This document shows positions 23,250 to 61,034 of a stretch of DNA of 64,000 bases, piece after piece. The notes beneath the pieces were generated by a model that ran no database searches, was not told the origin of the DNA, and saw nothing but the letters and a program-made list of their open reading frames with translations. The stretch comes from a virus. Numbering within the stretch: position 1 is the stretch's first letter; every line of letters begins with the position of its first letter. The DNA lies in the UHGV virus genome UHGV-1374697; one strand, 5' to 3'. A program made the translations under genes and the position numbers.

Positions 23250-23315
23250 CACAACGGAGAACCCACGGAACCCATTGTGACCGTTTGGCCGTGGGTTCCG
23301 TGGGTTCCGTGGGAG
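23250..23315. promoter_or_regulatory. inverted and direct repeats of the GGAACCCACGG / CCGTGGGTTCC motif in a 159-nt intergenic gap
   Basis: gagaACCCACGGAACCCattgtgaccgtttggccGTGGGTTCCGTGGGTTCCGTGGGag. Two 13-bp inverted arms with an extra direct copy. The same motif recurs at 53279-53330, 54020-54045, 55600-55640, 56987-57047, 60906-60930 and 61010-61034. Confidence 0.5.
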
Positions 23316-23365
23316 TTTAACGTCCTGACATTTCGATGTACGAAATCGATAAGCCAGTTGTACTG

Positions 23366-24118
23366 CTACATTGAATTGTCAGAAGGAAAGACACATTCAC
23401 GTAACTCCTTCATGGCTAATGCCCTAAGTCTTCTCGGCTTGAAGGAGGGCATAACCATACCGAAGGTGACCACGGAAAAGTGTTTATACTTTTCCGGGGT
23501 TACGGTGAAGCTCATCCAGTTCCATGCAGTCCATCTCGCCGAAGGGGTCGATGGCGTCCAAGGAAACTCTTTAAGAATGTTTTCCTCTCCCACGATAGTG
23601 GAAGCCAGTCGATATATCTCTAAATCTTCCGGAGCCGTTTCTGACCAATCTGTCCAAGACAAAGATTTCTGAAATGCTTGCTTTGCCAGCTTCCCCGTCA
23701 TGGCATAACATGTTCCGTGTATATAGTAAATGTTCTTCCATGCAGTATAGCGTGAGCTACATCCAGCCATGCTCTTCCCCTGCGCTAGCATGTCTTCAAT
23801 CCAGTCCGCAGACAGAAGACAAGTATCGGAATCTAGCTTTATCACAATGTCCTCGTCTCCAACATCTTGTGCTAGGTAGGAGAGGATGCCTCGCACACAT
23901 TCGGGACCGTTAAGATTTCCCCTTCGATTAAATTGGCTTCGCTCATAATGTGTGGCTCCCGCTTGTAGGAACTGGGTTTCTGCGCCTTCCGTACACGGGG
24001 AATTTCCATCATCGACTACAGTAATAACTGCATGAGGGAGAGTTTTTCTCGCGCAACGTACACATTCCAGCGCATCTGGCTGGTCTCTTCTGTAAGTGAA
24101 TATATAGATGTAAGTCAT
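23366..24118 (-). CDS. family 2 (GT-A) glycosyltransferase
   Basis: 250 aa. HAVITVVDDGNS matches the canonical GT2 (I/V)VDDGS nucleotide-binding motif, and IKLDSDT provides the DxD motif. Confidence 0.65.
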   Translation of the reverse strand: MTYIYIFTYRRDQPDALECVRCARKTLPHAVITVVDDGNSPCTEGAETQFLQAGATHYERSQFNRRGNLNGPECVRGILSYLAQDVGDEDIVIKLDSDTCLLSADWIEDMLAQGKSMAGCSSRYTAWKNIYYIHGTCYAMTGKLAKQAFQKSLSWTDWSETAPEDLEIYRLASTIVGEENILKEFPWTPSTPSARWTAWNWMSFTVTPEKYKHFSVVTFGMVMPSFKPRRLRALAMKELRECVFPSDNSM

Positions 24119-24130
24119 GGGGGTGGGGGT

Positions 24131-24691
24131 TTAAGCAGGACCAAAGACAAATTCAGAACCAATGAATACGGCTCCTCTGTGTAATTGCTGAATGTACCCG
24201 TTGGTTCCTTTTCGAGTTCGAGCTACGGGAAGAGAAAAGAAGGCATCCGGCGATGGCACACTACTTACCATAGACAGACCATAATCATCTCTATTGACGT
24301 TAAGATACCATATAATATCATCATCAAGGGGCGCCCTTTCTCCGCTTGCTACGGGGTGTAAATTTCCGGGAGCACCACCTATGTTAAAAACTGCGCTTCC
24401 AGATACAATAACCCCGGCCACAAACATGACCGCCGCGTTAGGTCCGGAATCCGTTGGGTTATACACGATGGAGAACATGCTCTCTTCCCGGTTGCGCATG
24501 AGGGGGTCATCATTATATACCGGGGTATGGAACGTCCCTATATCACTATCCCCATAGACAGGGGCAATCGGGTCCGGCATTGAATCAAACGGCGGGGCCT
24601 CATTAAACATCTCCGTACCCACGGGAACCGAGGGTACGGGATGATTAAAGAGGTCAGGAGCTTGTGGAATCTCTTGATACTCTTCTGCCAT
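24131..24691 (-). CDS. hypothetical protein (about 186 aa)
   Basis: The first ATG at 24733 overlaps the upstream gene by 41 nt. The ATG at 24691 (MAEEYQEIPQ) lies 1 nt after the upstream stop at 24693-24695. Confidence 0.5.
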   Translation of the reverse strand: MAEEYQEIPQAPDLFNHPVPSVPVGTEMFNEAPPFDSMPDPIAPVYGDSDIGTFHTPVYNDDPLMRNREESMFSIVYNPTDSGPNAAVMFVAGVIVSGSAVFNIGGAPGNLHPVASGERAPLDDDIIWYLNVNRDDYGLSMVSSVPSPDAFFSLPVARTRKGTNGYIQQLHRGAVFIGSEFVFGPA

Positions 24692-24692
24692 A

Positions 24693-25127
24693 TTATTTAC
24701 AGAATTCCTTGCTGGGAATGATGACAGGAGCAACCTCGCTCTTGGGCTGTTCCTGCGTAAAGGTCAACCTTCCGGGGCTAACAATTACACAAGATTCTCC
24801 ATTGCAGATAACTGCACGGTCCTTACTCACATCCGCGTAGGTGCAACTACTCTGCCCCAATGCTCCAAACATGGCTAAAGCTCCAAGGGCGGCACTAATA
24901 ATCCCGGAGATGATAGTCTTGTACTTGCCGGGTACGCCAAGCTGGACACAGTACTTCGCCGTCAGCTGGGCAAAGATGTCAGCCTCTCCCTTGATTAGTT
25001 TGCCCGCCATGTTCATGTAGGGCTTTTTCTTTACCGCGGTGAGCTGGTCCCACGGGGTTGGAAGTTCGGCCATGCTATAGAGCTTGGCCGCGACTTCTGC
25101 CTGTTCATTGAGATTATTCTTTTCCAT
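24693..25127 (-). CDS. membrane protein (144 aa, one central transmembrane helix)
   Basis: The hydrophobic segment IISGIISAALGALAMFGALG. Confidence 0.5.
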   Translation of the reverse strand: MEKNNLNEQAEVAAKLYSMAELPTPWDQLTAVKKKPYMNMAGKLIKGEADIFAQLTAKYCVQLGVPGKYKTIISGIISAALGALAMFGALGQSSCTYADVSKDRAVICNGESCVIVSPGRLTFTQEQPKSEVAPVIIPSKEFCK

Positions 25128-25132
25128 GTTGA

Positions 25133-25486
25133 TTAGATTGTTTGTGGCCGGAAGATGTCACGACAGAAAGTGATACCTTTCGGAGTTAGTTTACTTTTAG
25201 TCTGTCTCCTCGACCCCCTCACTCCCTCGTATTCAATATACCCTTTTTCTTCCAGCTTGCGCAGGATAGAGTAAAGAGAAGATATGGGGATGCGAGTGCT
25301 CTCACTTATTGTAGGATTCTCATGTTTCTGCTCGAAGCCATTGGCGTGCATGTACAGAAGAACACGAACATAGTCGAGAGGGAGCGAAGGGTCAAGAAGG
25401 TCAATATTCAGAAGGAGACCGAGCAAGGCTCGCTGATTGCTCTGGCCCTTCTGTATGGTTCTGGTTGTGGAGTAGGTCGTTCTCAT
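25133..25486 (-). CDS. PadR-like winged-helix transcriptional regulator
   Basis: 117 aa. ISSLYSILRKLEEKGYIEYEGVRGSRRQTKSKLTPKG matches the PadR recognition helix and wing pattern (tlYpxLxrLExxGlixxxxxxxxxrrrkyYxlTxxG). Confidence 0.5.
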   Translation of the reverse strand: MRTTYSTTRTIQKGQSNQRALLGLLLNIDLLDPSLPLDYVRVLLYMHANGFEQKHENPTISESTRIPISSLYSILRKLEEKGYIEYEGVRGSRRQTKSKLTPKGITFCRDIFRPQTI

Positions 25487-26042: not shown

Positions 26043-26046
26043 ACGT

Positions 26047-26277: not shown

Positions 26278-26374
26278 GAGATAAAATGTTATGCGGCGAG
26301 GTCTCCCTCCGCGATTAGTATTGAGTTAATGGGGAGGACGAATCCTCCCCCGCTAATGGTTGTCCAGTGAGCGT

Positions 26375-27627: not shown

Positions 27628-27629
27628 GG

Positions 27630-28037: not shown

Positions 28038-28039
28038 GA

Positions 28040-28942: not shown

Positions 28943-28990
28943 GCCACCACCATATAATAATTTTATTATTTGTCAAGAAATTATTTCAAT

Positions 28991-29020
28991 AAAAATCCCC
29001 GGAGGGATTACCCTCCGGGG
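28991..29020 (-). terminator. rho-independent terminator, followed by a TTGACA-containing promoter-like region
   Basis: On the minus strand: CCCCGGAGGG-taat-CCCTCCGGGG-atttttattg, then TTCTTGACAAATAATAAAATTATTATATGG and ggtggtggcATG (28942). Confidence 0.65.
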
Positions 29021-29080
29021 CGATGTGCTACTTGCGCTTCCAGCCAAGTAAGTCAAGAAGTTCGAGTAAGCTCATGATTA

Positions 29081-31626: not shown

Positions 31627-31632
31627 GATAGT

Positions 31633-31681
31633 AAAAATTTGGGGCTGAACCCATAGAAGTTTAGCTCATGAGTTCAGCCCC
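31633..31681 (-). terminator. rho-independent terminator immediately upstream of the 718-aa gene
   Basis: On the minus strand: GGGGCTGAAC-N21-GTTCAGCCCC-aaatttttactatcATG. A 10-bp perfect stem followed by a T-run. Confidence 0.6.
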
Positions 31682-31700
31682 GTCAAGGTTTAATTGTTGG

Positions 31701-35015: not shown

Positions 35016-36227
35016 TCATAATCCAAAGGCACTACCAATAATGTCCCCGACTGCGGTCGGCCCAGCGGGCGGCTGGGTCTCTGGGGCTTCAGGGCTACCA
35101 CCGTTAGCGGAGGGGCGGGCCTTGCGGAGTTTGGCCACCTTCACGTTGAGAGCCTCAATCGTTGCCCTCGCGTCTGCCAATTCCTTGACCATGAGTTCCG
35201 CAAGTGCTCCATCCATGAAGGAACCATTATTTATCTTGTGGGCAAGATGGCGGGCATGCTTCACATTCTCTTCGGTAATCTCCGTGGTCATGCCCAGTTC
35301 CTTGGCGCGTTCCTTCATCGCTTCCAATGTGTAGTTATCGAGATTGACGGTGTAGGTCCCGGCCTCCGACTTGCCACCGCGGCTAGCCTTCAACTCTTCC
35401 ACATACTTGTCGGCTTCGGCCTGATAGTTTCCGTGGGCGACAATGGCCGCGTCGCGGACCTTAGCCATGCGGACAAATTTGAACACGGCAGAATCGCTAA
35501 TGCCCAGTTCCTTCCCAATGGCCTCATACGCTTCTTCGCGGTCGTACTCGTCGAGGTCGGGATTAAGGGCAACTTCATTCAGCTTGTCCATGTCCAGAGA
35601 TGCACCAGAGGCGCGGGCAATCTCCGCAAGTTTGGCGTTGGCCTTATTATACGGGGCAGTTACATTGGTCTTGTATTCTTCGGTTGCGGTGAAGGCATAG
35701 CCGCGTACAATCTCGCGCAGAGATTCAAGCTCTTCATTGTTGGGAGAGGATTTACCCGCTTCTTCCAGCTTGGCCTTCAAGTCCGCGATTTCTTTCTTCG
35801 CGCCCCTTAACTGGACGCGCATCTCGGCGAATGCCTTGCTCGCGGCCTTGCTCGCTTTCTGTTCCTTAGGACTATTGTTCTGTTCCTCCTCGTTGTTCTG
35901 TTCCTCTTCATTGTTCTGTTCCTCTTCATTGTTCTGTTCCTCGTCATCCCCGGATTCCGTGGTATCACCGTTGTTCTGTTCATCGTCAACGACGGTTCCC
36001 GTGGTATTGACTACTTCATCATCCGCGATGCGGGGACCAGCGTTCGGCATGACTACCGTACCGTCCGGGGATTCAATGGGAGCCGTGGGGTTAGCGGGAT
36101 TGGTGGGTTGAGTGGAATCCGTGGGTTCCGGGGCGAACAGGGTCTGTTCAAAAATGTTATGTATGTCGTTGTGAATAGCACCATCTATGATGCCCTCCGC
36201 TACTGCGGGAATATTTACGTTGTCCAT
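35016..36227 (-). CDS. scaffold-like protein (403 aa) with an acidic EEQNN x5 repeat
   Basis: Lies between the portal and capsid genes. It has coiled-coil segments (KKEIADLKAKLEEAGK) and an N-terminal acidic tandem repeat NNEEEQNNEEEQNNEEEQNN encoded by an 18-bp DNA tandem repeat (35870-35950). Confidence 0.5.
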   Translation of the reverse strand: MDNVNIPAVAEGIIDGAIHNDIHNIFEQTLFAPEPTDSTQPTNPANPTAPIESPDGTVVMPNAGPRIADDEVVNTTGTVVDDEQNNGDTTESGDDEEQNNEEEQNNEEEQNNEEEQNNSPKEQKASKAASKAFAEMRVQLRGAKKEIADLKAKLEEAGKSSPNNEELESLREIVRGYAFTATEEYKTNVTAPYNKANAKLAEIARASGASLDMDKLNEVALNPDLDEYDREEAYEAIGKELGISDSAVFKFVRMAKVRDAAIVAHGNYQAEADKYVEELKASRGGKSEAGTYTVNLDNYTLEAMKERAKELGMTTEITEENVKHARHLAHKINNGSFMDGALAELMVKELADARATIEALNVKVAKLRKARPSANGGSPEAPETQPPAGPTAVGDIIGSAFGL

Positions 36228-44008: not shown

Positions 44009-44013
44009 GACAG

Positions 44014-44042
44014 ACTATACTGGATAAATCCCTACTAGTCAA
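44014..44042 (-). promoter_or_regulatory. sigma70-like promoter TTGACT-N17-TATAGT, with the ATG only 5 nt after the -10 box (a leaderless mRNA candidate)
   Basis: On the minus strand: cggcTTGACTagtagggatttatccagTATAGTctgtcATG (ATG at 44008). Confidence 0.45.
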
Positions 44043-44150
44043 GCCGGAAAATAAGACGGCCACCCCGGTATGGGATGGCCGAATGGAACGTGCTCCTTTT
44101 TTACCCGCAATGCGGTGCTACGGGATAAACCCGTCAGAGCCGGGAGGGGG

Positions 44151-44918
44151 TTACTTGGTCACGGCGGAAAGGAGGCCCATCTCTTGGATGGCTTCAACCT
44201 GACCTTCCACCGGGTGCGGTTTGAACTTGAGATACGCTTTGGCGTAGCTGTTCTTCCCGTCACGGGAGACGGCGCGTTGTGCGCCAATCTGCACACGGAA
44301 GGGCAGGGAGCCGAGCTTGTTCCCCTTCAACATCATGAACTGGATGAAGGGAGCACCAACGCCCGTGTACTGGTTACCTTCCGGGGTGTATCGTGCCAGC
44401 GTCCACTGGTCGCCCATGAAGTCAATGGTGAAGAGAGCGTCAAGGTCATCCTCGGTGGTACTTGCGTCCTTAATACCCTGCGGCTTCTTAACCAGTAGCC
44501 ACATGGCAAGGGCACGGTTGACCTGCGACTTGTCGAATCCTTCTGCTTCATACTCTTCCTTCGTATTCCACGTCTTAGCATATACGCCGGGCTGACGTTC
44601 GTTGTACGGGATGTATTCGCGGAAGAACTTACGAGCCTTCAATACGATACATTCAAGAGGATTATTGCGCTCGGCAACGACCAGACCGTTGAGAAGGAAC
44701 GCACCCAAACTGCCAATCGGTTCTTCCAGCTTAGCCTCATCGCAAGAGGCTTGCCACAGTTTGAGGTAAGGAATCTGGATATCCGAAGCGTCGGTCTCGC
44801 CCTCGAAGGAGTGGTATTCCGTAGCGGTTGCGAGTTGATTGGGTTCCGGGGTTCCCAGTTCCAATGCGTCTCCCGGGTCTATTCCTAAGGTTTCGTGTTC
44901 TGTTTTCTTAGTAGCCAT
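44151..44918 (-). CDS. hypothetical protein (255 aa); possible ssDNA-binding or annealing partner of the adjacent nuclease
   Basis: ORF lying between a RecB-like nuclease gene and a RuvC-like gene and preceded by its own promoter. No motif recognised, so the function is inferred from context only. Confidence 0.5.
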   Translation of the reverse strand: MATKKTEHETLGIDPGDALELGTPEPNQLATATEYHSFEGETDASDIQIPYLKLWQASCDEAKLEEPIGSLGAFLLNGLVVAERNNPLECIVLKARKFFREYIPYNERQPGVYAKTWNTKEEYEAEGFDKSQVNRALAMWLLVKKPQGIKDASTTEDDLDALFTIDFMGDQWTLARYTPEGNQYTGVGAPFIQFMMLKGNKLGSLPFRVQIGAQRAVSRDGKNSYAKAYLKFKPHPVEGQVEAIQEMGLLSAVTK

Positions 44919-51086: not shown

Positions 51087-53927
51087 CTATCCTACGATTA
51101 CTTCTTGGCGTTGTTTGTCCTGTTCTTCCCATTCGGGGAAGTCCCGATACCAACGGGCCTTAGTACTGTCGCTTGCGTACTTGAGCCAGTCTTCTACATG
51201 GAGGAACCTCATGCGCCGTCTTCCTCCCGACACCTGTTTCGTTTTCCACCATGCTTCGTCTTGGAAGTAAGTGGTGATGGCGGTCTTGAACCCTGCGAGG
51301 GACTGACGCTTAGGAGCGTTAGCGGAACGCGGCTGGTCCGTCACCACCCCCGTATCTCGGATGGTGTAGAGAATATGCAGGAGAGCTTGCGGCCCCGTAT
51401 AGGTGATGGGAATATGCTTCCACAAAGGATTGCCCTCCTTATCCGTATCTATGTCCCAATCAACCGGACGAAGCTGGGTCACAAGGGATTCCTCCGCGGA
51501 TTCCCGCATGCCATACTTGGTGTTTATCTCTTGGGACTTCTGCACCACCATGCTTACAAGTTCGCTAACATCCTTGCTTAGCGAGTGGTAGTTCTCATAC
51601 ACCTGCGCCCATAGTTGCTGTATATCTATGGAATCACGAACCTTCTTCGCCGTAGCTAGGTCCCCTCCCATACTGCGGACATAAAGGACAGAGTAGCGGC
51701 GGTTCCCCGTGGCATCCGTCAGTGGGTTGGGGTCGTTGGACGTACCAATGAACACCGCCTTCGGCTTATACATCCGCTGGTCACGCTGGTATGCCGCACG
51801 GGTCTTGGCGGGCTGGATGTCAAGAGCATTCTTCACTTTGTTCGCGTCCTCCGGGTTAGAGAGGATTCGGTCAATCTCGTCCAGCTGGATAACATGGGTA
51901 CTGCTCTTCTGCACGATAGCATCCTTCTCATTATGGATGTCAAAGCTACTCGTGAAGCATCCGGGATAGTCGGCAAGGAGCTTAGAGGCCCAGTAAGATT
52001 TACCGCTACCTTGGCTACCAATGAAGATGGGGCAGAAGATGGGGCACATGTTATTAACATCTTCCATCGACTTCTCCATGTGGTCGAGGACGGTGTAGAG
52101 CCATGTACGAAGCACGAAGTCCAGCCACTCTTCTTCGGTATAGCCTTCCGGGGCCATGCCCTCTTCCAGTTCAAGAGTACGGATGTACTGCCCCACTCGG
52201 TCAATACCATCCCAAGGTTTTACGCACAAGGTGGATGCGAGGGGGTGGTAGAAGAAGTTGGTGGAGATACTGCGGAAGGTTGCGTCCAGTTCGTGTTGCA
52301 ATTTGGAGGTAGCCGTTCCTACTGCCAGATAGCTGGCCCACTTGCCCGCGATGTGGTTCACGAACTCCGGGTCGTAAGGATAGAGCCTTCGGCTCACGAG
52401 GTCCAGCACCAGTTTGGTCTCATTAGCTACATCGGTCACAATGCGGAGACCAATGGAGGCAAGAAGGAAGCTAACATTAACGAATGATACGGAAACGATG
52501 TCCTTCTTGGGGTCCTTCATGGGGAAGTCGAGAGTAGCCCAGCGTTCAGGTTTCTTTGCCTGATAAGCCTTCCCCTCCGGTAAGGGTCCGGTCTCGGCAA
52601 GGATTTTCTTTAGCTCTGCGTCGGGGTTATATATCTTATCCAGCAAGGATTCAGATTCAGCATCCGTAACCGGAGGGGTTATGGTGGCAATGTCTCTGTT
52701 CTCGATGTCCAGCACATACATGCGGAACAGGTCATTCATGCTCTTCACCTTCCGGTCCTTGTCTTGGCAGGAGCTATGGAGGCAATGGAACCATGAGGTA
52801 GATGGGAAGTCCCGGACAATGTTGAATTGCAGGTCACGGTCGGCACGGTGTCCCGTGCATACGCTTGCGCACGCGGGGCACATGCCGTACATGTGGTTCC
52901 CCTCCCAGCGCATTGCCCGGAAGCCCTCGGCCTGTTCGGCGTAGCCATTATCGTCCAGCCACTTGGGGAACTCGGAGATAAGAATGGGAAGCGGGTCCCG
53001 CTCGGTCAGGAGGTCATCCTCTGCCGCGGGAGCCACGGTTTCCTTGGTAGCCCGTTCGACCAGCTTGTCAAGGGAGGGCACGGTAAATACCTGCGGCGTA
53101 TCTTTATCCCGTTCCACCAACTCCCCGTGGTAGAGGAACTGCAACCGGGAGATGTCCTTACATGCGGGGTCGCAGGTCAGACCGGAGAGGTTGTACACTT
53201 GGTCCCACAGGTATTTGCAGATTAGCTGGTGGCGAGCCTGACGAATAGCCGCGACGTACTTGCCCATATCCGGGATATGGGAATCCGTGGAATCCGTGGA
53301 TTCCGGGGGTTCCGAGATGTTGAGAGCCTCGCGTGCCCGTTCATCGACTTGGACGAAGAACTTGAACCCGCCACTGGGGCTGACGTACCCGAACAAGTAA
53401 CCGGGCAAGTGGGAGAGCTTATCCTCGGCAATGCGTTTAAGTTCCTCCGTAGTGGCGGGGTTCGTATCTTCATCCTTCTTCTTTAGGTCAATGTCCAGAC
53501 CAATGATGCCGGAGTGGGACCAGAAGGAGATAGCCCGGCGCAATGCGGTACGCGGGTCAACGGTCTTCTTATTCTCGCCCAGCATAGATGGGACGGAATG
53601 GAAGATGACGGAAGGGATGAGGGCAGGAAGCGCGTTCTTGACCTTCACCTCGCCATCTGGGCTGTTCTCCTTCCATCGGGTATAGACCTTCTCATAGGCG
53701 GGAGCCAATGGCGCACGAAGTGGCCGCCCTGCCTGTTTATCGAGAAGGAGTGATAATTGGAGACTTGTCTTTAACCGCTCGTCCGCGATGTCGTTACTGC
53801 GGAGGAAGTTAATGAGACAGTCGATTGTAATTGCCTGTGGATTCTTCCCGCTTCCGGTAAAGACGCGAGGAGCGTTACTCCGCTCCAACAAATCCCAAGG
53901 CGTGGGGATTAGAGTAATGGATTGCAT
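51087..53927 (-). CDS. bifunctional primase-polymerase (AEP) fused to an SF3 (D5-like) helicase
   Basis: AEP motif I IIGLDID. SF3 Walker A FIGSQGSGKS, Walker B VIQLDEID, and motif C GTSNDPN. Four-Cys zinc motif CPACASVC...CLHSSC. The start at 53927 (MQSITLIPT) has an A-rich leader. The ATG at 54032 is an upstream in-frame extension. Confidence 0.8.
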   Translation of the reverse strand: MQSITLIPTPWDLLERSNAPRVFTGSGKNPQAITIDCLINFLRSNDIADERLKTSLQLSLLLDKQAGRPLRAPLAPAYEKVYTRWKENSPDGEVKVKNALPALIPSVIFHSVPSMLGENKKTVDPRTALRRAISFWSHSGIIGLDIDLKKKDEDTNPATTEELKRIAEDKLSHLPGYLFGYVSPSGGFKFFVQVDERAREALNISEPPESTDSTDSHIPDMGKYVAAIRQARHQLICKYLWDQVYNLSGLTCDPACKDISRLQFLYHGELVERDKDTPQVFTVPSLDKLVERATKETVAPAAEDDLLTERDPLPILISEFPKWLDDNGYAEQAEGFRAMRWEGNHMYGMCPACASVCTGHRADRDLQFNIVRDFPSTSWFHCLHSSCQDKDRKVKSMNDLFRMYVLDIENRDIATITPPVTDAESESLLDKIYNPDAELKKILAETGPLPEGKAYQAKKPERWATLDFPMKDPKKDIVSVSFVNVSFLLASIGLRIVTDVANETKLVLDLVSRRLYPYDPEFVNHIAGKWASYLAVGTATSKLQHELDATFRSISTNFFYHPLASTLCVKPWDGIDRVGQYIRTLELEEGMAPEGYTEEEWLDFVLRTWLYTVLDHMEKSMEDVNNMCPIFCPIFIGSQGSGKSYWASKLLADYPGCFTSSFDIHNEKDAIVQKSSTHVIQLDEIDRILSNPEDANKVKNALDIQPAKTRAAYQRDQRMYKPKAVFIGTSNDPNPLTDATGNRRYSVLYVRSMGGDLATAKKVRDSIDIQQLWAQVYENYHSLSKDVSELVSMVVQKSQEINTKYGMRESAEESLVTQLRPVDWDIDTDKEGNPLWKHIPITYTGPQALLHILYTIRDTGVVTDQPRSANAPKRQSLAGFKTAITTYFQDEAWWKTKQVSGGRRRMRFLHVEDWLKYASDSTKARWYRDFPEWEEQDKQRQEVIVG

Positions 53928-54090
53928 ACTTTTATGAATGAGGCCGGTGGAGCGTGGACGGCGTAGTCCGCACCCTCGTGGCCTATGGTTTGAATTGCCG
54001 TCCGGAGGTCGAACGGTGTCCGAGGCTACCACGGGTTCCGGGGGTTGTCAAGTAGAATCTACGACCCTTAACAAGCATGTAACAAGCAAG

Positions 54091-54562
54091 ATTTAGAGTA
54101 GTTGTTACGGTAAGTTATTGAGTATATACGACTTAACAACTATAACAAGCATAACAAGCAAAAACCGTAGTTAAACGTGTACGCACTCGTCCTCGTGCCG
54201 TATGGCGGTCGCGCTACGCGCTCCGCGAACCATGTTTTTATGATAGGGAAAGGGCTAACTCGGAAAGCGATTAAAACTGAATGAGTTAGCGTAACAACCT
54301 ATCAAAATCTCGATGTAAGATGTTAAGAGCCAAGTACTTAACAGCTGAAGCTCGAAAGAAGTTGTTACGCTGGGTCATTGATAATAAACGACTTAACAAC
54401 TATAACAAGCAAACAAGCAAATTCTACAGACTCTATATATGTGTATATAAGGCCTCCCCTATACCCCTCTTTTCTTATATAACTACTATTTTTGCTTGTT
54501 TTGGTTGTTATAGTTGTTAAACTATTAAAAAAGAAGGGGTTAGCGTAACAACTACTCTAAAT
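54091..54562. repeat. AT-rich iteron block bracketed by 19-bp inverted repeats; origin-of-replication candidate
   Basis: ATTTAGAGTAGTTGTTACG (54091-54109) and its reverse complement (54544-54562) flank several copies of AACAACTATAACAAGCA-type units. A 22-bp perfect direct repeat CGACTTAACAACTATAACAAGC sits at 54129 and 54389, with inverted copies near 54497 and 54585. The block is adjacent to the primase-helicase gene. Confidence 0.5.
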
Positions 54563-54937
54563 CATGCTTGTTATAGGTTGTTAGTAGATGTTACAAGATT
54601 GAGAATGAACGGATTAAGAGAACAGCATTGGGCGTCAGCCACTTATGAGTATGGGGTTCTCCGGCTAAAGAAAAACCCTTCGGAAGCAGGACATGCCTAC
54701 CTCCGAAGGGCTACGCCTTGGGAACATCAACCTAGGAGATGGGTGACAGGAGGGCGTTGCTTCGAGTAGGACTTACCTACTACCTTACTGCCTACCCTCC
54801 ACGCGTTGCCCTCCTGTCTGGCCGTATAATACCAGCCCCATCGAAAAAGTCAAGACAATCCTCTGCCAATATGTTATTTTGTTATGCACGCGTATATACG
54901 CGCCCACATGTGTGTACGCCCCCTTTCCAAATCTCCT

Positions 54938-55060
54938 GAATTTAATCGAGCGTCCTACCCTAGAACGCGCCGCAACCCTCCCTCCGCTACAACTATCCAC
55001 CCGGACCCCGTCCCCTCCTTCTACCCCGCCACACTGGATTAAATTCGTAAACGCGCCATC
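54938..55060. repeat. copy 1 of a roughly 70-90-bp direct repeat family in the control region
   Basis: GAATTTAATCGAG(C/G)GTCCTACCCTAGAACGCGCC(G/A)CAACC...CCGCTA(C/T)AACTA. A second copy lies at 55417-55481 with the adjacent A-segment permuted. Confidence 0.5.
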
Positions 55061-55231
55061 ACACCAATTTCCTCTTGACTTTCTCCCCTGATGTGATATG
55101 TTGCACCTGTTCGCTCCGAACGGCAACCGAACCAGCTAAGCCCAATGCTTCTGGCTATCCCAAGCGGGGAATCCGCATGCCACAGGAGCGGACTAAACAC
55201 TCTCCTTTCTACAGGCATTTTCCATAGTTAC

Positions 55232-55276
55232 GCCCGTGGGTAGTCTCGTCAAGCTACCTGCGGGCTTTTTCTTTGC
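55232..55276 (+). terminator. plus-strand rho-independent terminator inside the non-coding region, marking the possible 3' end of an ncRNA
   Basis: GCCCGTGGGTAG-tctcgtcaag-CTACCTGCGGGC-tttttctttg. No protein-coding gene lies upstream on the plus strand. Confidence 0.4.
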
Positions 55277-55389
55277 CGCCAAATCCGCGAGAGCCGCTCC
55301 GTCGCATTATGCCCGCCGTGCGCAAATTTGGTCGATGGTAGTGCCCTATCTCCTGTTTCATGACTAATGTACCCACTCGCTACCTATAC

Positions 55390-55481
55390 CCCGTCACACT
55401 CTTGTAAATTTGCCCGAATTTAATCGAGGGTCCTACCCTAGAACGCGCCACAACCGCTGGTCCGCTATAACTACCCGCCCG
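55390..55481. repeat. copy 2 of the roughly 70-90-bp direct repeat family
   Basis: See copy 1. The two copies are more than 85% identical over about 65 bp. Confidence 0.5.
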
Positions 55482-55859
55482 AAGAGTATGCCCGCCTTCT
55501 AGGTTGATACGTCCCCCCGTGGACTAGCCGCGTGTCGATTTTTCTTGACTAGGCGGGGATGGGGTGCAGACCAGATGAGGCTGAAACAGACCAGAGGTCA
55601 TGACCATCATGTTGAACCCACGGAACCCACGCACCCCGCGAAGCGGCCATGACCATGTACCCACCCATGTACCCGCCGCATGTCGATTTTGCTTGACAAC
55701 CGACAACCGACATGCCCAGAAGGGTACTCCCTCCCCCGTACCCCACGGAAAAAATTTGACCCAACTATTTACTATGGGCCGCGTGCAACCCCGGAGCCTG
55801 GGAAACCGTGGTGGTGTTTGGATTTTCTTGGTATCCAATTTCCCCCTATACCTACGGAA

Positions 55860-56070
55860 TCGGTGCATCACGGAACCTTTTTGCCTCTGATTGCACCGGG
55901 AACGGTATATCCCGGGGGGGCCTGCCTATCCCCCACATGCACCGGAATCGGTAAGATAGGCCACCGTGTTGCAACGGGAACGGTATACCACCTGCCCTGA
56001 ACTGCCACCGCCCCTGTCATGGGAACGGTACGCCATGCAACCCATTGAATCCTCGGAATCTGTTGCAACC
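55860..56070. repeat. cluster of degenerate GGGAACGGTA / CGGAATCGGT direct repeats
   Basis: ccGGGAACGGTAtatcc, caacGGGAACGGTAtacc, catGGGAACGGTAcgcc, plus cCGGAATCGGTgcatc, caCCGGAATCGGTaagat and cctCGGAATCtgttg, spaced 30-40 bp apart. Confidence 0.45.
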
Positions 56071-56394
56071 GTCTGATGATAAGGAACTTATGGTATAAAG
56101 AGGTCTGTAGGTCTCCGGGGGAACCGAGGGTGCAATACCTGTTTCCCACTGACACCCTGATATGCGTAACTCGTTGATACTCTAGGCAATCCGCTTCCAT
56201 ACTTCGCATAATACATATAATGCAAAATCGCATTCCGGTTTTCCTACTAATCCGATAGGAATTGAAATTGAAGGTGCTGGAGAAGGCAGGAAAGGGGCAG
56301 GGTCTTGCCCTCAAATTGTTCAACTCTGGACGGGTTAAGTATCAACAACATATGAAGCATACCCTAGGGGGTATAGGTATCCTTCCCTCATTAA

Positions 56395-56552
56395 TAGTCA
56401 AATATTGGACTAATGGCTTTTACATTTTTGTAAAAGCCCTATATCTTGTATGTCAAATTGTCACACCCCTATATCTTGCGTACCTGTAGCGGTGCAATCG
56501 GCAGGCGGCCAGTCCTTGCGGTTTTGCCGTCAGATAGTCAAATATCGGACTA
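56395..56552. promoter_or_regulatory. two near-palindromic 18-bp operator-like sites TAGTCAAATAT(T/C)GGACTA
   Basis: Sites at 56395-56412 and 56533-56552 with GACTA/TAGTC half-sites. The direct repeat CCCTATATCTTG x2 (56443-56490) lies between them. Confidence 0.45.
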
Positions 56553-56577
56553 TCTATCTTCAAAGATTGTTAGACCG

Positions 56578-56783
56578 GACTTATAAAGTTAGGCTGGACT
56601 TAAAAGTTAGGCTGGACTTATAAAGTTAGACCGGACTTAATAAGTTAGGCTGGACTTATAAAGTTAGGCTGGACTTAAAAGTTAGGCTGGACTTATAAAG
56701 TTAGGCTGGACTTAAAAGTTAGTCCAAACTTAAAATGTTAGGCCGGACTTAATAAGTTAGACGGCACTTACAAGGGAGGAATG
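56578..56783. repeat. tandem array of about 11 units of 18-19 bp, GTTAGGCTGGACTTA(T)AAA
   Basis: Alternating 19-bp and 18-bp units, with degenerate units at the 3' end. They share the GGACT half-site with the upstream palindromes. There are no unique spacers. Confidence 0.8.
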
Positions 56784-56819
56784 TTTAAGAATCCTTAATA
56801 GTTATGAATCCTTAACTAT

Positions 56820-56882
56820 CTTGAAGCCCTTGAAGCCCTTGAAGCCCTTGAAGCCCTTGAAGCCCTTGAAGCCGTTGAAGCC
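56820..56882. repeat. tandem repeat of 9 bp x7 (CTTGAAGCC)
   Basis: Six perfect copies plus GTTGAAGCC. Confidence 0.85.
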
Positions 56883-56986
56883 GCTATCCCACCACAACCG
56901 ATTGCCCGAAATTGTTCCATGTGGAACATTTTAAGGCCAAAAGATACCAAAAGAATACAAAAGAATCCCCTACACTATATATATAA

Positions 56987-57047
56987 AAGGGGAACCGGGG
57001 GAACCGGATACCGGGGGAACCGGGGGAACCGGGAATCATGGATACCG
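56987..57047. repeat. GGGGGAACCG x4 direct repeats (the GGAACC motif family) just upstream of the first early promoter
   Basis: aaaGGGGAACCGGGGGAACCGGataCCGGGGGAACCGGGGGAACCGGgaatcatggataccg. Confidence 0.7.
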
Positions 57048-57116
57048 AAGGGTTGTATGACACAATTATAACACGCAGATAGTCAGCAGGTTACAACGCG
57101 CCGGAAAGAAAACCGC

Positions 57117-57171
57117 TTGACGCACCCGGCAATCATGTTAAATTGCAATCATCCAACGGGGAACAACCCCC
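57117..57171 (+). promoter_or_regulatory. early promoter and leader-hairpin cassette, copy a (degenerate)
   Basis: TTGACG-N15-TTAAAT, then tgcaatcatcc and the hairpin CGGGG-aacaa-CCCCG, upstream of the ATG at 57215. Confidence 0.4.
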
Positions 57172-57214
57172 GGACAATGAGAACACTAATTAAATAGATA
57201 GGAGACCACTAATC

Positions 57215-57499
57215 ATGATTATCAACATCATCATCAATCGCAGGTGCGGCCTCATTAACTATGACGCCGCTACACATCTTAAAGCTATCTATGACTACGC
57301 AACCGCCGCCGGACTGTCAGACCTAGCCCGTGCGTTGGATAGCGGAAAAGAAGCTGATGTTAAGGCCGCTCTCATGCACTATGTCATCAATGGGGGTTGC
57401 AACCCGGACATCCACCACTACAACATGTTTGACTTGTGCTTATTTATCAACCGGGTGCGGTGGACGGATGAAGAAGAAGAATCTGCTGATACTGAATGA
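57215..57499 (+). CDS. early hypothetical protein (94 aa)
   Basis: First plus-strand ORF after the control region, with an A-rich leader. Confidence 0.5.
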   Translation: MIINIIINRRCGLINYDAATHLKAIYDYATAAGLSDLARALDSGKEADVKAALMHYVINGGCNPDIHHYNMFDLCLFINRVRWTDEEEESADTE

Positions 57500-57532
57500 T
57501 TTATGATTGTGTCATACAACTCAAAAAACTAT

Positions 57533-57585
57533 TTGACAACACTCTAAAATCTGATAAATTGCAATCATCCACCGGGGCAACCCGG
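57533..57585 (+). promoter_or_regulatory. early promoter and leader-hairpin cassette, copy b
   Basis: TTGACA-N16-TAAATT, then gcaatcatcc and the hairpin CCGGG-gcaa-CCCGG. It is preceded by GTCATACAACTCAAAAAACT, and AACAATAGAAAGAAATAA lies 8 nt before the ATG at 57628. Confidence 0.55.
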
Positions 57586-57627
57586 ACAACGAAAAGAAAC
57601 ACTAAAACAATAGAAAGAAATAATACA

Positions 57628-58056
57628 ATGAGCACATATACAGATCACGCAAAGAGATTCCTTGAAAATTGCGGAATCAGAATTACCGGAAAGTATAAGG
57701 GAAGATATGTTCCCTTGTGGGATAAAGAGCCGCATAGCACATGGGAAATTGTCCTGCGGCGTGAAGACCGCCGGAAGGGAGAAAAAGACGCAATCTTCAT
57801 CACGTTTTATCAGTCACACGCAGATAAGTACAAGACGCCCACCGCTTATGCCGTACTGGCTTGCCTGTGTAAGTCAGATTGTGGCTCCTATCAGGACTTT
57901 TGTGAAGATATGGGATTGCCCCTATATGACGAGGATACGGGGGAACGCAATATGGATTCCTATTGCCAGTACACAGCGGCGTGCCATGAGTACGCAGATC
58001 TTAAAACCTTCTTCACCCGCCCGGGTGAATGGGAAGAGCTGGAAGAGATTTATTGA
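57628..58056 (+). CDS. early hypothetical Cys-rich protein (142 aa)
   Basis: The start at 57628 (MSTYTDHAKRF) is supported by the conserved leader. The ATG at 57496 lies inside the promoter cassette. Confidence 0.55.
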   Translation: MSTYTDHAKRFLENCGIRITGKYKGRYVPLWDKEPHSTWEIVLRREDRRKGEKDAIFITFYQSHADKYKTPTAYAVLACLCKSDCGSYQDFCEDMGLPLYDEDTGERNMDSYCQYTAACHEYADLKTFFTRPGEWEELEEIY

Positions 58057-58122
58057 ACCTTGAAAAGATACGCCACTCTACGAAACATTTAACCACAAAC
58101 CAACAACAGAAAGAATAATACT

Positions 58123-58512
58123 ATGAAAGACATATCAGAATTACACATCAGAAAGGAAATAAAAGTAGAAGGAAACGGAAAAGTTCACCTCGCCATTGAA
58201 AGCTTTAATTCCTTGCACCGAAAAGAGTATACTCTTTCCCCCGCCATGTGGGCGGCTTCGGAAGTACTACAGGACAAGGTTTCCCGGCCGGGAAGTATGT
58301 ACCTGAAAGATACGTTTTCTATCTATCGCGTAGGTGCTTATGACGTTATGATAATTTCATCCGTGGATGAATCCCCATATTCAACCCTTGAAAGATTATC
58401 GCTAGCGGAAAAGATAGCATGGTTCCCTTTCGGCATTGAAAACGTCCAACAGGTAGAAGATACCCGGCATTCTAATTCACAACATGTATCTTATCTGCGT
58501 ATCATTCAATGA
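58123..58512 (+). CDS. early hypothetical protein (129 aa)
   Basis: ORF with the leader AGAAAGAATAATACT-ATG. Confidence 0.5.
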   Translation: MKDISELHIRKEIKVEGNGKVHLAIESFNSLHRKEYTLSPAMWAASEVLQDKVSRPGSMYLKDTFSIYRVGAYDVMIISSVDESPYSTLERLSLAEKIAWFPFGIENVQQVEDTRHSNSQHVSYLRIIQ

Positions 58513-58588
58513 ATATGAAACCCGTTAAAGCTGAATAATTACACCGCCCTAACATATTAACAATAAAACAATAGAAAGAAATAAAATC

Positions 58589-59116
58589 ATGAATACATTT
58601 CCTAAAATGCTCAATGTTACTGAATACGCCCTGATTCATGACATTCCAGAATGGGCAATCTACTCCCTTGAATACGGAGAAGGTGAAGAAGATATGGCAG
58701 ATGAAGACCTTAAAATCCTTGAAGAGTGGGAAAAAGACTACTACCCTGTTTCCTCGGTGGAAGACCAGCCGGAAGCACATTTCACCAGCACGCCCGCCTT
58801 TGGCTTGCCCTGTGACTGTGTAAAATATTATGTTCTCCCTTGGTATATAGATGCCGTCTATATGTGGGCAAAACCCGGATGCCGCATGACAAATTGTTAC
58901 CTTAAGTTCACGCTAGTTTCAGGCTCGCAGGTAAAGGTGTATCTGAACGGGCATCAAACCCTGCGGAGTGCTATCCGCAACCTGATAGGGCAGGTAGAAA
59001 TGGGGCATACTTTCACAGACGTGAACGGGCATGAAGTTACTCCAAAAGCCCGCGATATCATTAACTTCTGGATTTGTACAATGCAAGGGCAAACCCTAGC
59101 TACAGGGCGCATTTAA
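58589..59116 (+). CDS. early protein, paralog A of a duplicated pair (175 aa)
   Basis: About 60% identical to 60324..60854 (shared ...YALIHDIPEWA...TPAFGLPCDCVKYYVLP...PGCRMTNCYL...GHQTLRSAIRNLIG...GHTFTD...QTLATGRI). Has the conserved AACAATAGAAAGAAATAAAATC leader. Confidence 0.6.
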   Translation: MNTFPKMLNVTEYALIHDIPEWAIYSLEYGEGEEDMADEDLKILEEWEKDYYPVSSVEDQPEAHFTSTPAFGLPCDCVKYYVLPWYIDAVYMWAKPGCRMTNCYLKFTLVSGSQVKVYLNGHQTLRSAIRNLIGQVEMGHTFTDVNGHEVTPKARDIINFWICTMQGQTLATGRI

Positions 59117-59152
59117 CATATTAACAATAAAACAATAGAAAGAAATAAAATC

Positions 59153-59455
59153 ATGAATGAAGACGAAAAGAAAACGGCAATAGATATTTTAGCCGCTCAT
59201 ATCCGGGAAACGCGCCCCTACCTTTTCCAGTTGTCCGCACGCCATGATGAAGAGCTGGAACTAATCGCCGCACTAGCGGAAGCAACCGGAAGCAAGCTTA
59301 CCTTGCTTGTCAGGAACCGGGAATCCCGGGAAATGCGGGCAATCAGCATTGCGGACTATCGCCCTCATGAAATGGTAGTCAGCCGTGCCTTTATTTCAGA
59401 CCCACTATGCCTTGCCCTTGAGGAAGCGGGCGCAAGGATTGTGTATAACCGTTAA
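59153..59455 (+). CDS. early hypothetical protein (100 aa)
   Basis: ORF with the conserved leader. Confidence 0.5.
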   Translation: MNEDEKKTAIDILAAHIRETRPYLFQLSARHDEELELIAALAEATGSKLTLLVRNRESREMRAISIADYRPHEMVVSRAFISDPLCLALEEAGARIVYNR

Positions 59456-59492
59456 GTCCCCCCTGAAAAGTTACACCACCCTAAAAAAGTAT

Positions 59493-59550
59493 TTGACAAG
59501 ATAATAAAATCCGATAAACTAAAATCAGCAAGCGGGAGACAAGCTCCCGC
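59493..59550 (+). promoter_or_regulatory. early promoter and leader-hairpin cassette, copy c
   Basis: TTGACA-N16-TAAACT, then aaaatcagcaa and the hairpin GCGGGAG-acaag-CTCCCGC. It is preceded by TTACACCACCCTAAAAAAGTA, and the leader ATTAGAAAGAAATAACTT-ATG follows. Confidence 0.6.
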
Positions 59551-59581
59551 ATAACCTCAAACCATTAGAAAGAAATAACTT

Positions 59582-59908
59582 ATGAAAGAAATACTAAAAT
59601 TAGACTATGACGAAATGACTGTATCAGACCCTGACAAGATGACAATCTTGCCCCATAACTGGAAGGAAGATACTGCTCTCATGCTTACCGTTACGGATAG
59701 GGTATGCAAGGGAATCGAAAAAGCAAGGAAGCTACTTCCCACCCTACCCCGGGGAAGTGAGATTAAAATCAGGCTGGATTCTTGGTACATTCTGGGAGAA
59801 CTTAAAGGATATACGCCGGACTTCGGATATATTGTGATAAGACCGTTCGAAACTGCTTTTGTACTAGCCCTTTCTGATTCCCCGGAAACTATTTCTTGGT
59901 CGCTCTAA
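59582..59908 (+). CDS. early hypothetical protein (108 aa)
   Basis: ORF downstream of cassette c. Confidence 0.5.
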   Translation: MKEILKLDYDEMTVSDPDKMTILPHNWKEDTALMLTVTDRVCKGIEKARKLLPTLPRGSEIKIRLDSWYILGELKGYTPDFGYIVIRPFETAFVLALSDSPETISWSL

Positions 59909-59945
59909 TTTATCATACAACTGAAAACCTAAACAACACTATATC

Positions 59946-60269
59946 ATGAACACTCAAATTGAATTGAAAGACAACGAAATCCCGGCATGGGCATTCTACG
60001 AAAACGGCGAGGGCCTTCTGTCCCTTATCTTTTTCGCCGCATCACCTTCACATGCACGCCCCATTGCCGCCCTGCTTAACATATACCCGTGGGATGCCCT
60101 GCCAGAATTAGATGATTCTGACATTGTGCGCTTGTGGCAGGCGGTGAAAGAGAATGAGTTAGGGGACTGGTGTACCTATGACGCAAAGGAAATTAACCGG
60201 TATCTGGAACAACGGTTCTGCCAGTCAGTAGCTACAGCTTCTATAATTACGCCGCTCCCCATTGAATAA
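59946..60269 (+). CDS. early hypothetical protein (107 aa)
   Basis: An ORF. Confidence 0.5.
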   Translation: MNTQIELKDNEIPAWAFYENGEGLLSLIFFAASPSHARPIAALLNIYPWDALPELDDSDIVRLWQAVKENELGDWCTYDAKEINRYLEQRFCQSVATASIITPLPIE

Positions 60270-60323
60270 CTACGCCGCCCTATAAAATCAAACTAATAAT
60301 AAACAATAGAAAGCAACCATATT

Positions 60324-60854
60324 ATGAAGACTACAACTAAACCGGAAATACTTAAAGTATCAGACTATGCCCTTATCCATGACATTCCCACCTATGCCCT
60401 CAATTACTTGGTGTGCGGGGAAGATGAAAGCCTCGCCCCTGATGACATTGAAAACATTGAAGAGTGGAAAAAAGACTACTATCTTGCCCCCCTAGTTGAA
60501 GGCCAGCTGGTTGCTCTTCATTCTGCCACTCCGGCTTTCGGTTCACCCTGCCCTTGTGTAAAATACTATGTCCTGCCTCGCTTTATGGGGGCAGTCCTGA
60601 CATGGATAAATCCGGGTTGCCGGATGACTAACTGCTACCTTGAACTTAAGCTTACAGACGGTGGCCGGGTAAAGGTGTATCTGAAAGGGCATCAAACCCT
60701 GCGCAGTACTATCCGCAACCTGATTGGCTTGGTAGAAACGGGACATACTTTCACCGATATGAACGGCCACAATGTATCCCCCCGTCCCCGTGATATCGTT
60801 AATTTCTGGATTCGTACAATGCACGGGCAAACGCTGGCAACCGGAAGAATATAA
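60324..60854 (+). CDS. early protein, paralog B of the duplicated pair (176 aa)
   Basis: See 58589..59116. Has the leader AACAATAGAAAGCAACCATATT-ATG. Confidence 0.6.
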   Translation: MKTTTKPEILKVSDYALIHDIPTYALNYLVCGEDESLAPDDIENIEEWKKDYYLAPLVEGQLVALHSATPAFGSPCPCVKYYVLPRFMGAVLTWINPGCRMTNCYLELKLTDGGRVKVYLKGHQTLRSTIRNLIGLVETGHTFTDMNGHNVSPRPRDIVNFWIRTMHGQTLATGRI

Positions 60855-60905
60855 ACCACTTGCGGCTTGTTCCGGGGAATCAAAATTGTTCCACGTGGAA
60901 CATTT

Positions 60906-61034
60906 AAACCCCGGAACCCCCGGAACCCGTCAAATAACTCTAACCAAATAACAACGTAGAAAGACAAAGGAATAATTCCCGCCCCCGGAATGCGGGGGAT
61001 ATCGGGTGCAACGGGTTCCGGGGGTTCCGGGGTT
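60906..61034. repeat. 21-bp perfect inverted repeat pair (CCCCGGAACCCCCGGAACCCG ... CGGGTTCCGGGGGTTCCGGGG) enclosing a leader-like segment and a GC hairpin, with no ORF
   Basis: The arms lie at 60906-60930 and 61010-61034. Between them sits AACTCTAACCAAATAACAACGTAGAAAGACAAAGG (leader-like) and the hairpin CCCGCCCCCGG-aat-GCGGGGGATATCGGG. Confidence 0.6.

Follow-up and report, generated by a model that had tools for sequence, protein, structure and literature searches.

UHGV-1374697 is an uncultured phage genome of ~70 kb, and the stretch of 64,000 nucleotides analyzed here (the window) covers most of it. Comparison with more than 30 IMG/VR contigs that are 75–99% identical showed a circular or permuted map, of which ~5 kb is absent from the window. 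The subject of the analysis is a GC-rich motif, GGTTCCGKGG, and the 9-bp units with a GGAAYC core to which it belongs; these units occur inside genes, in non-coding control DNA and in the arms of two long stem-loops at 23.2 and 60.9 kb. Genes between 1325 and 54032 are nearly all on the minus strand and include a 3308-aa open reading frame (ORF), the large terminase, an exonuclease, a helicase, a DNA polymerase and a primase-helicase. Small plus-strand genes fill 57215–64000 behind near-consensus TTGACA-N16-TAAAYT promoters with 5' hairpins, and these early genes have a common leader without a Shine-Dalgarno sequence. The two gene blocks are separated by 3.2 kb of repeat-rich non-coding DNA (54033–57214), in which the contigs of several relatives stop, and the early region is heavily shuffled among relatives. 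No megablast match was found among 50,697 records of deposited phages and no tblastn match for TerL, while the DNA polymerase and the VapE-type primase-helicase had only remote protein matches (<30% identity).

Occurrence of the motif

The motif was confirmed at every locus listed in a first-pass annotation of the window, and its enrichment is strong. GGTTCCGKGG was found 12 times against 0.31 ± 0.56 expected, GGAACCCACGG with at most one mismatch 21 times against 1.37 expected, and the two commonest 8-mers of the window are CCCCGGAA and CGGAACCC. The excess is carried by ~10 local tandem arrays of the 9-bp unit CGGAAYCCN and not by dispersed single sites. Tandem pairs with a 9-bp period numbered 5 in intergenic DNA (0.0 simulated) and 8 in coding DNA (0.3 simulated), while the bare hexamer stands in coding DNA at the level expected from trinucleotide composition (64 vs. 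59 ± 7). Period 9 also dominates the tandem repeats of the window as a whole (15 of 44 rows), including arrays of unrelated sequence. Copies beyond those listed earlier, at 8143–8194, 16709–16725, 36115–36133, 43974–43988 and 44842–44851, are all coding.

The loci are of mixed kinds, from linker codons in genes and hypervariable arrays without structure to the arms of hairpins. The motif looks like a family of GC-rich 9-bp units prone to slippage, with the core GGAAYC and a role that would be set by context, and not like one recognition site. In so heterogeneous a class, the earlier suggestion of a binding-protein or recombination target stays a hypothesis. A Chi-like or otherwise orienting polar sequence was also rejected, as the strand skew is moderate (CGGAACCC, 13 vs. 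6) and confounded with gene strand and reading frame.

Stem-loops at 23.2 and 60.9 kb

Inverted sets of the unit are present in the window at two loci only, 23259–23307 and 60904–61037. The features of the two loci are as follows.

23255–23315, minus strand: hairpin of inverted 9-bp units, with arms at 23259–23274 and 23292–23307 and a 17-nt loop
60904–61037, plus strand: arms element, with two perfect inverted arms of 27 nt, each made of two 9-bp units, and an 80-nt spacer
60887–60902, no strand: palindrome TGTTCCACGTGGAACA, second copy, 2 nt before the left arm
61038–61069, plus strand: orphan leader CAATAAACCAATCATAAATTACAGACC and deletion junction GTGAATAAC...
58123–58512, plus strand: relocated 129-aa gene, 93% identical to L006:3601–3990, 2.9 kb upstream of the arms

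The hairpin at 23.2 kb has a stem of 16–17 bp and a predicted energy of −47 kcal/mol (z = −4.75), and the 100-nt segment enclosing it ranks 4th of 2108 on the minus strand. It starts ~50 nt after the stop codon of the gene at 23366–24118 and ends 30 nt upstream of the −35 box of a TTGACC-16-TATGAT promoter (23229–23202) that is preceded by AT-rich AATTAAAAATTT. The tail after the stem reads TCTCCGTT or TTCGTTGT; most relatives have TTCGTTGT, with five T in eight positions. All of the ~29 relatives with sequence at this locus have retained the hairpin, and its few polymorphisms leave G-U pairs possible on the sense strand. The gene upstream is one of two unrelated alternatives, and both join exactly at the 5' arm: six relatives carry the one that the window does not have, and homology begins inside the arm.

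The arms element follows the stop codon of a DUF6926 gene and precedes the TTGACA-16-TAAACT promoter at 61096–61123, which is preceded by AT-rich AAAAAGTAT; the stem ends 59 nt upstream of the −35 box, and the tail after the arms is TTTAACAA. The inverted arms are perfect, as had been noted, and measure 27 nt (60904–60930 and 61011–61037) rather than 21 nt, with 80 nt between them. The enclosed sequence had been described as free of ORFs and has only one, of 15 codons (60990–61037). The spacer consists of a leader-like stretch and an inner CCCCCGGAATGCGGGGG hairpin. Folding of the whole element gave −85 kcal/mol (z = −7.0), and the most stable 140-nt segment on the plus strand of the early block lies in it. 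The arms and their 80–85-nt spacer are kept as one unit, in the same context and the same orientation, in 21 of 21 relatives carrying the element. Polymorphism in the arms is limited to one pair position, which is C/G in 2 relatives, T/A in 8, C/A in 9–10 and T/G in 1 and is uninformative for covariation.

The enclosed leader had been thought to be the remnant of a deleted or mobilized gene cassette. Among the relatives, no presence or absence of a cassette between the arms was seen, the only differences being indels of 5 nt and 1 nt. Gene shuffling does lie behind the orphan leader, with the cassette located next to the arms rather than in the space that they enclose. In ~11 of 20 relatives, the 129-aa gene stands directly 3' of the right arm and starts ...ACAGACC-ATGAAAGAC, while in the window the same place reads ...ACAGACC-GTGAATAAC, a gene-end repeat. 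The gene has moved from beside the arms to 58123–58512, which left the leader orphaned. Set beside the paralogous gene at 58589–59116, the palindrome and arms look like ~185 nt of extra sequence in a standard leader. The arms element itself gave no sign of mobility, and no empty site was found among the relatives; L005 and L199, which have no arms, also have no flanking genes. The two DUF6926 paralogues (58589–59116 and 60324–60854) are 80% identical at their 3' ends, and relatives have a rearranged early region between the two, joined at the shared gene-end and leader repeats TGAATAACTACGCCGC... and AACAATAGAAAGAA.

Both stem-loops thus stand in the slot between a stop codon and a promoter, which elsewhere in this genome holds canonical CCCCGG...CCGGGG terminators (28943–29080, 44009–44150 and 1202–1324). 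An intrinsic terminator calls for a GC-rich stem, a loop of 3–8 nt and a U-tract directly behind the stem; with loops of 17 and 80 nt and the tails given above, neither element has this form, and neither was reported by the terminator scan. Promoters of this genome are generally paired with GC-rich stems, including stems over the −10 box or at +1. The promoters of the minus-strand block at 2331–2381, 12309–12410, 18059–18125 and 31627–31700 have a conserved cTTGAC −35 box and a −10 box placed in the loop or the 5' arm of a strong GC-rich hairpin, e.g., GGGCATGGGAGA[TATAAT]TCTCCCATGCCC.

Copies inside genes

Read on the sense strand, the unit xCG-GA[A/T]-[C/T]CC encodes T/P/A/S-E/D-P/S. The coding copies described further are listed below.

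53281–53313, minus strand: tandem array in the primase-helicase gene, encoding the loop SEPPESTDSTDS
8143–8194, minus strand: units in the 3308-aa ORF, read TEP-TAT-TAT-TAT-AEP
36115–36133, minus strand: units encoding PEP-TDS in a 403-aa ORF
43974–43988, minus strand: copy in a different frame (f2), D-P-G-T-H-G near the N-terminus of a 171-aa ORF

The copy inside the primase gene is real, and the repeat that it encodes, given before as STDSTDS, reads SEPPESTDSTDS. The number of TDS units in this linker varies from 2 in the window to 5–7 in relatives L010 and L008, and the loop is absent from primases of 47–49% identity. In 7 of 9 cases TDS is written as ACGGATTCC, while codon-pair bias lifts the expectation to ~1.2 of 9. 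Peptide or codon usage was rejected as a full explanation of the coding copies, as an excess persists after synonymous shuffling and codon-pair bias covers part of it. The frequency of the bare hexamer in genes follows from second-order composition, and a mild excess at the DNA level remains beyond codon-pair bias and composition. In a scan of a genome collection, the three-unit 24-mer was common in high-GC bacterial genomes, mainly of Actinomycetota and Phycisphaerae, where we take its copies most likely to be codons of PEP/TEP linkers; the scan offered no hint of the host.

A link of the 43974 copy to terS or a pac site was considered and rejected; the ORF starts IIGCDPGTHGA and by eye appears resolvase-like, and the copy looks like ordinary codons. 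The polymerase of L005 has the unit in another frame, as G-T-P-G-I-P-G. Many relatives (L187, L195, L198, L201, L207–L210 and L219) have a further copy, CCCCGGAACCCCCGGAACCC, of which the motif search found none in the window; it reads I-P-G-T-P-G-T-P in an apparently coding region with a primase-like CxDPA...QFxY stretch.

Arrays and palindromes of the control region

The non-coding DNA at 54–57 kb contains direct arrays and one of the two palindromes.

54034–54043, minus strand: one unit, within the 17-nt spacer that separates a −35-like TTGACA (54051–54046) from TAGCCT (54028–54023)
55614–55631, plus strand: two direct units GAACCCACG, not structured (z = −0.85)
56820–56882, plus strand: seven copies of CTTGAAGCC, a diverged member of the 9-bp family
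56913–56928, no strand: palindrome TGTTCCATGTGGAACA, GTTCC-N4-GGAAC, first of two (fold z = −3.1)
56989–57047, plus strand: direct array of GGGGAACCG units, 2 + 2 plus degenerate copies, not structured (z = −1.6)

The unit at 54034–54043 does lie beside the TTGACA upstream of the primase gene; contrary to what had been stated, it does not overlap this box and is 2 nt away inside the spacer. This TTGACA/TAGCCT pair was not listed by the promoter scan and is a candidate promoter only, and the stretch is not structured (z = −0.5). The start of the primase was placed at the ATG at 53927 because relatives carry indels of 1, 2 and 19 nt between 53927 and 54032. The array at 56989–57047, recorded before as four copies of the motif, is present as well but is built of the variant unit GGGGAACCG, which has in common with the other loci only the GGAACC core and the 9-bp period. 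It adjoins a (TA)n tract, with the first early promoter (57117) ~70 nt downstream.

The direct arrays at 54034, 55614–55631 and 56989–57047 fold no better than shuffled sequences, and the direct arrays of this region are hypervariable. Across 8 haplotypes of this stretch, including near-identical relatives, the unit, the period (7, 9 or 18) and the number of copies all differ. The 56989–57047 array counts 7 copies in L010 and is built of an 18-bp GGGGAATCATGGATACCG unit in L003 and of CCCCGGAAC in L199; L046 and L208 have a CGGAACC array with a 7-bp period, and relatives hold GTTGAACCC or CCCGGAACC arrays in place of the seven CTTGAAGCC of the window. The palindrome AAATGTTCCAYRTGGAACATTT is kept in 8 of 8 haplotypes of the same stretch, with variation confined to the central 4 nt, and its second copy at 60887 is missing only in L008/L050-type haplotypes.

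Origin iterons were rejected as a class for the 9-mers: an AT-rich tract does adjoin, but unit, period and number vary among the 8 haplotypes. A 19-bp unit, GTTAGGCTGGACTTATAAA, is repeated ~10 times at 56569–56760, ~200 nt from the (TA)n tract, in a classic iteron-like manner, and on its sequence this array is a better candidate for an origin than the 9-mers. Two pairs of a sigma70-like promoter and a canonical intrinsic terminator, at 54674–54853 (minus strand) and 55075–55265 (plus strand), are predicted to produce small RNAs of ~110–150 nt; neither pair matches an Rfam family. An 89-nt direct repeat (54935–55023 and 55413–55501) precedes promoter-like sites. Just upstream of the primase gene, large inverted repeats at 54080–54173 and 54480–54573 have arms of 34–41 nt that are 90–94% complementary, an AT-rich center and a composition of TAACAAGCA/TAACAAC 9-mers; in L044, GGAACC-type arrays flank TGCTTGTTA repeats equivalent to those of the window. 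At the site of the window's 56989–57047 array, the more distant relative L005 (7290–7480; IMGVR_UViG_3300045988_115270) has a stem of 37–42 bp in which (CCACGGTTT)x3.5 faces (GGAAACCGT)x4 and encloses (GAACCCACG)x3 (z = −9.3 for the DNA fold). The motif TTGTGTCATAC(AA) is found upstream of several promoters, at 23239–23249 (minus strand), 57053–57065 (inverted), 57507–57519 and 61627–61639, and is preceded in relatives by 1–4 tandem copies of a 27–28-bp unit, TTGTGTCATACCCACTAGCGTGTGCGG; this appears to be another operator-like repeat, independent of the first.

Pfam scans of ~49 ORFs for DNA-binding candidates gave one winged-helix protein only and none in the early block.

25133–25486, minus strand: winged-helix protein of 117 aa, HTH_34/MarR/PadR-like, present in 29 of 29 relatives

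Neither an integrase nor an invertase turned up among ~59 ORFs scanned against Pfam and PHROG, and these scans gave no match to a transposase or a REP-associated tyrosine transposase (RAYT).

Other features of the window

With a short early block that runs rightward and a long block that runs leftward up to a giant gene, the layout of the genome recalls N4-like phages, although its early promoters are of the host sigma70 type. The giant gene of the window, the 3308-aa ORF at 2382–12308 (minus strand), had no Pfam match. At 20014–20681 (minus strand), three tandem copies of a 229-bp unit with 64–84% identity give three paralogous ORFs of ~78–82 aa in a row. Searches for tRNA and tmRNA genes in the window found none. 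No Rfam family matched at the gathering score, and the sole weak match, of a plant microRNA model to a long hairpin (E = 0.07), is meaningless.

Interpretation and rival explanations

The reading that we tentatively prefer, at a confidence somewhat short of an even chance, is that the inverted sets are stem-loop boundary elements of promoter/stem-loop cassettes like the promoter-early stem-loops (PeSLs) of T4-type phages, with the coding and direct-array roles of the same unit standing alongside. Enrichment, anatomy, conservation, copy-number variation, the coincidence of a junction with a stem and the relocation of a cassette were all observed directly. The strongly structured inverted loci (z = −7.0 and −4.75), set against the unstructured direct arrays, were counted in favor of boundary elements. 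So were their high local rank in stability, the terminator-like slot that they occupy, the imperfect T-rich tail and the G-U-tolerant changes at 23.2 kb, the habitual pairing of promoters with GC-rich stems, the module junctions at both loci, the signs of slippage and the in-frame reading of the coding copies. The sets at 23.2 and 60.9 kb would form long perfect stems in the transcript, and these stems may end or attenuate transcription that reads through from upstream, may mark the read-through RNA for processing or may stabilize 3' ends. We infer such action of the hairpins on RNA, as attenuators or processing sites. RNase III requires ~20 bp or more of double-stranded RNA, and the arms offer 27 bp and the 23.2-kb stem 16–17 bp, with transcription of both inferred from gene order; the 27-bp duplex would be a good candidate substrate. 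The hairpins would also mark the boundaries of modules at which relatives exchanged or moved genes. The coding copies would be in-frame T/P-E/D-P/S loops that expand and contract, and the direct arrays at 54–57 kb would be hypervariable, microsatellite-like DNA beside the AT-rich tract and the 19-bp x10 array.

Several observations weigh against this reading. With loops of such size and no U-tract after the arms, where TTTAACAAT follows, the stems are not canonical terminators, and a full terminator would silence the 129-aa gene where this gene stands promoterless behind the arms. The commonest state at the polymorphic arm position is a C-A mismatch on the sense strand (9–10 of 20 relatives), so there is no visible selection for RNA pairing there. 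Inverted arrays also occur where transcription is not evident, in L005 upstream of the first early promoter (z = −9.3) and in L044 upstream of the primase (z = −5.3), which hints at a role at the DNA level or in protein binding. The GGAAYC cores of the control region persist despite changes in unit, period (7, 9 or 18) and copy number, and shuffling of synonymous codons leaves an excess in genes (CGGAWYCC, 19 vs. 5.9; ACGGATTCC, 7 vs. 0.7).

A part of these observations would follow if a phage protein, perhaps the winged-helix protein at 25133–25486 or the primase-helicase, bound GGAAC half-sites, with the palindrome as the high-affinity site and the arrays as accessory sites, in an operator-, iteron- or centromere-like control of early promoters or of the origin. 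Parallels of such a model are the heptad arrays of the omega repressor, ParR/parC and the ori/crr iterons of P4 alpha. A protein-binding role of the motif is conceivable because the conserved GTTCC-N4-GGAAC palindrome adjoins arrays at two loci; both of its copies are intergenic, 2–75 nt from arrays and each ~170–200 nt upstream of an early promoter, and only the central four bases vary in the 8 haplotypes that keep the first. The model would also account for cores that outlast changes in flanks, period and number, for arrays near the primase promoter that recur in relatives with 67% and 49% primase identity, for inverted arrays at apparently untranscribed sites and for a MarR/PadR-like protein encoded in every relative. 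It is nevertheless a possibility of the less likely kind, as the distance from array to promoter is not fixed (it ranges from a place within the spacer to −190), genomes that are nearly identical differ freely in copy number and unit, which is unusual for tuned operators, and the 23.2-kb hairpin has no palindrome. In addition, the control region is full of unrelated short arrays (CGATTGCC, GCATAAAT, CCAAAAGATA) and may simply be repeat-prone, the 19-bp x10 array is a better iteron candidate, and the universal presence of the winged-helix gene allows no correlation with the motif. A wider version is a network of GGAAC half-sites, in which palindromes nucleate and arrays of 7-, 9- or 18-bp period build complexes at a likely origin or terminus and at two distant loci, coding copies included, and array turnover tunes early expression or replication; this version we regard as distinctly improbable. 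The same doubt applies to its proposed protein, the conserved winged-helix protein or the primase-helicase acting in an omega/ParR-like or P4 ori/crr-like manner in an uncultured lytic phage.

The arrays could also be neutral by-products of replication slippage and gene conversion, with the hairpins persisting because they are harmless. The many period-9 arrays of different sequence, the extreme turnover of copy number and unit, and the genic hexamer frequency explained by local composition all fit this view. It remains unlikely in the face of the near-perfect retention of the arms (21 of 21) and of the 23.2-kb hairpin (~29 relatives) and of the recurrence of inverted arrays around a loop of 70–115 nt at four loci of the clade that differ in their unit variants. 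As a rule, an inverted repeat that is long and perfect is unstable if nothing maintains it. A target of cassette-moving recombination, site-specific or driven by homology at repeats, would agree with the alternative upstream modules whose homology starts inside the 5' arm at 23.2 kb, with the strong shuffling of the early region and with unit types swapped between arrays at one locus. The mapped early junctions, however, fall in gene-end and leader repeats (e.g., TGAATAACTACGCCGC and ACAGACC|ATGAA) and not in GGAACC units, a junction coincides with only 1 of ~10 motif loci, and the ORF scans gave no integrase or invertase, so that this explanation is very unlikely.

Least probable is a mobile or switchable arms element, whether an insertion like a miniature inverted-repeat transposable element (MITE) or a repetitive extragenic palindromic (REP) doublet forming a hairpin (REPIN), or a phase-variable segment that can invert. 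Its geometry would suit such a unit (perfect inverted arms of 27 nt and an 80-nt spacer, 134 nt in total), and excision of the arms, of the 45-nt upstream stretch with the palindrome and of one TTAA roughly restores the standard leader found after the paralogue at 59117. The window, however, has one copy, all 21 copies in the viral collection lie in one homologous context, and 0 of 21 relatives carry the segment inverted; the inner 26-mer and an arm 20-mer match the viral collection only in this context. TTAA flanks the copy of the window but not the L008 or L197 variants, which gives no consistent target duplication, the spacer has no promoter, and no recombinase gene was found. The inverton and MITE readings were rejected on account of the single orientation and single context of all copies.

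Comparison with known systems

Arbiol et al. (2010; PMC2839356) and Comeau et al. (2014; PMC4122927) have described the PeSLs of T4-type phages. A PeSL consists of a sigma70-like promoter, an AT-rich upstream tract and a GC-rich stem-loop placed upstream of the −35 box, between the boxes, over the −10 box or downstream. PeSL stem-loops have been shown to terminate transcription (PMC2839356) and may attenuate it instead, and PeSL copies border small genes of unknown function in variable regions, where recombination between copies shuffles cassettes (PMC2839356, PMC4122927). The window has all of these promoter/stem-loop layouts together with the relocation of a cassette, and its minus-strand promoters with a −10 box inside a hairpin match the commonest PeSL subclass. 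A sigma70-like promoter and an AT-rich tract lie beside both GGAACC stem-loops, and the copies flank variable small genes at which relatives differ by indels or replacements. Unlike PeSLs, the GGAACC stems are made of tandem 9-bp units, are perfect over 16–27 bp, have large loops (17 and 80 nt) and stand 30–60 nt upstream of the −35 box instead of inside the promoter, and their unit doubles as coding linkers and direct arrays. The phage is also unrelated to T4, its leaders have no Shine-Dalgarno sequence, and a terminator role of its stems is a prediction only.

The RNase III sites of T7-like phages are irregular hairpins of ~60 nt with an internal loop, located between early genes. The arms element resembles them as a long double-stranded stem between cistrons of an early polycistronic transcript, and in relatives of the L006 type no promoter separates the two cistrons that flank the arms. 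It differs in its perfect 27-bp stem and structured 80-nt loop, and cleavage is predicted only. REPIN, REP and MITE elements combine two inverted sequences of 20–30 nt with a spacer of ~70–80 nt, are extragenic, form long hairpins and occur in tens to hundreds of dispersed copies. The arms element shares their geometry, extragenic position and long hairpin, but it stands in only one context in each genome, a target duplication is not consistently present, and the scans found neither a RAYT nor a transposase. Operator or centromere arrays of short units and iterons include the omega heptads of pSM19035, ParR/parC and the P4 alpha ori/crr. Like these, the units of the window are short, direct and inverted, lie upstream of promoters and beside a likely origin, and have dispersed secondary sites; unlike these, their spacing and sequence are not constant among close relatives, and the unit also serves as codons. 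Overall, we class the motif family with regulatory stem-loops and tandem repeats that are already known, as a variant of them and not as a new kind of element.

Significance

Whichever reading is right, the 9-bp repeats break assemblies. If a GGAAC-binding protein were responsible, the units would represent a new phage operator or iteron code. If the preferred reading of boundary stem-loops is true, an uncultured ~70-kb lineage would organize its variable genes by the promoter/stem-loop cassette logic of T4-type phages, and the 9-bp repeat of its stems would also seed variable protein linkers and hypervariable control arrays. The PeSL idea would then extend to an unrelated phage group, and the repeat would provide a simple marker for module boundaries and for variable-number tandem repeat (VNTR) typing of strains in metagenomes.

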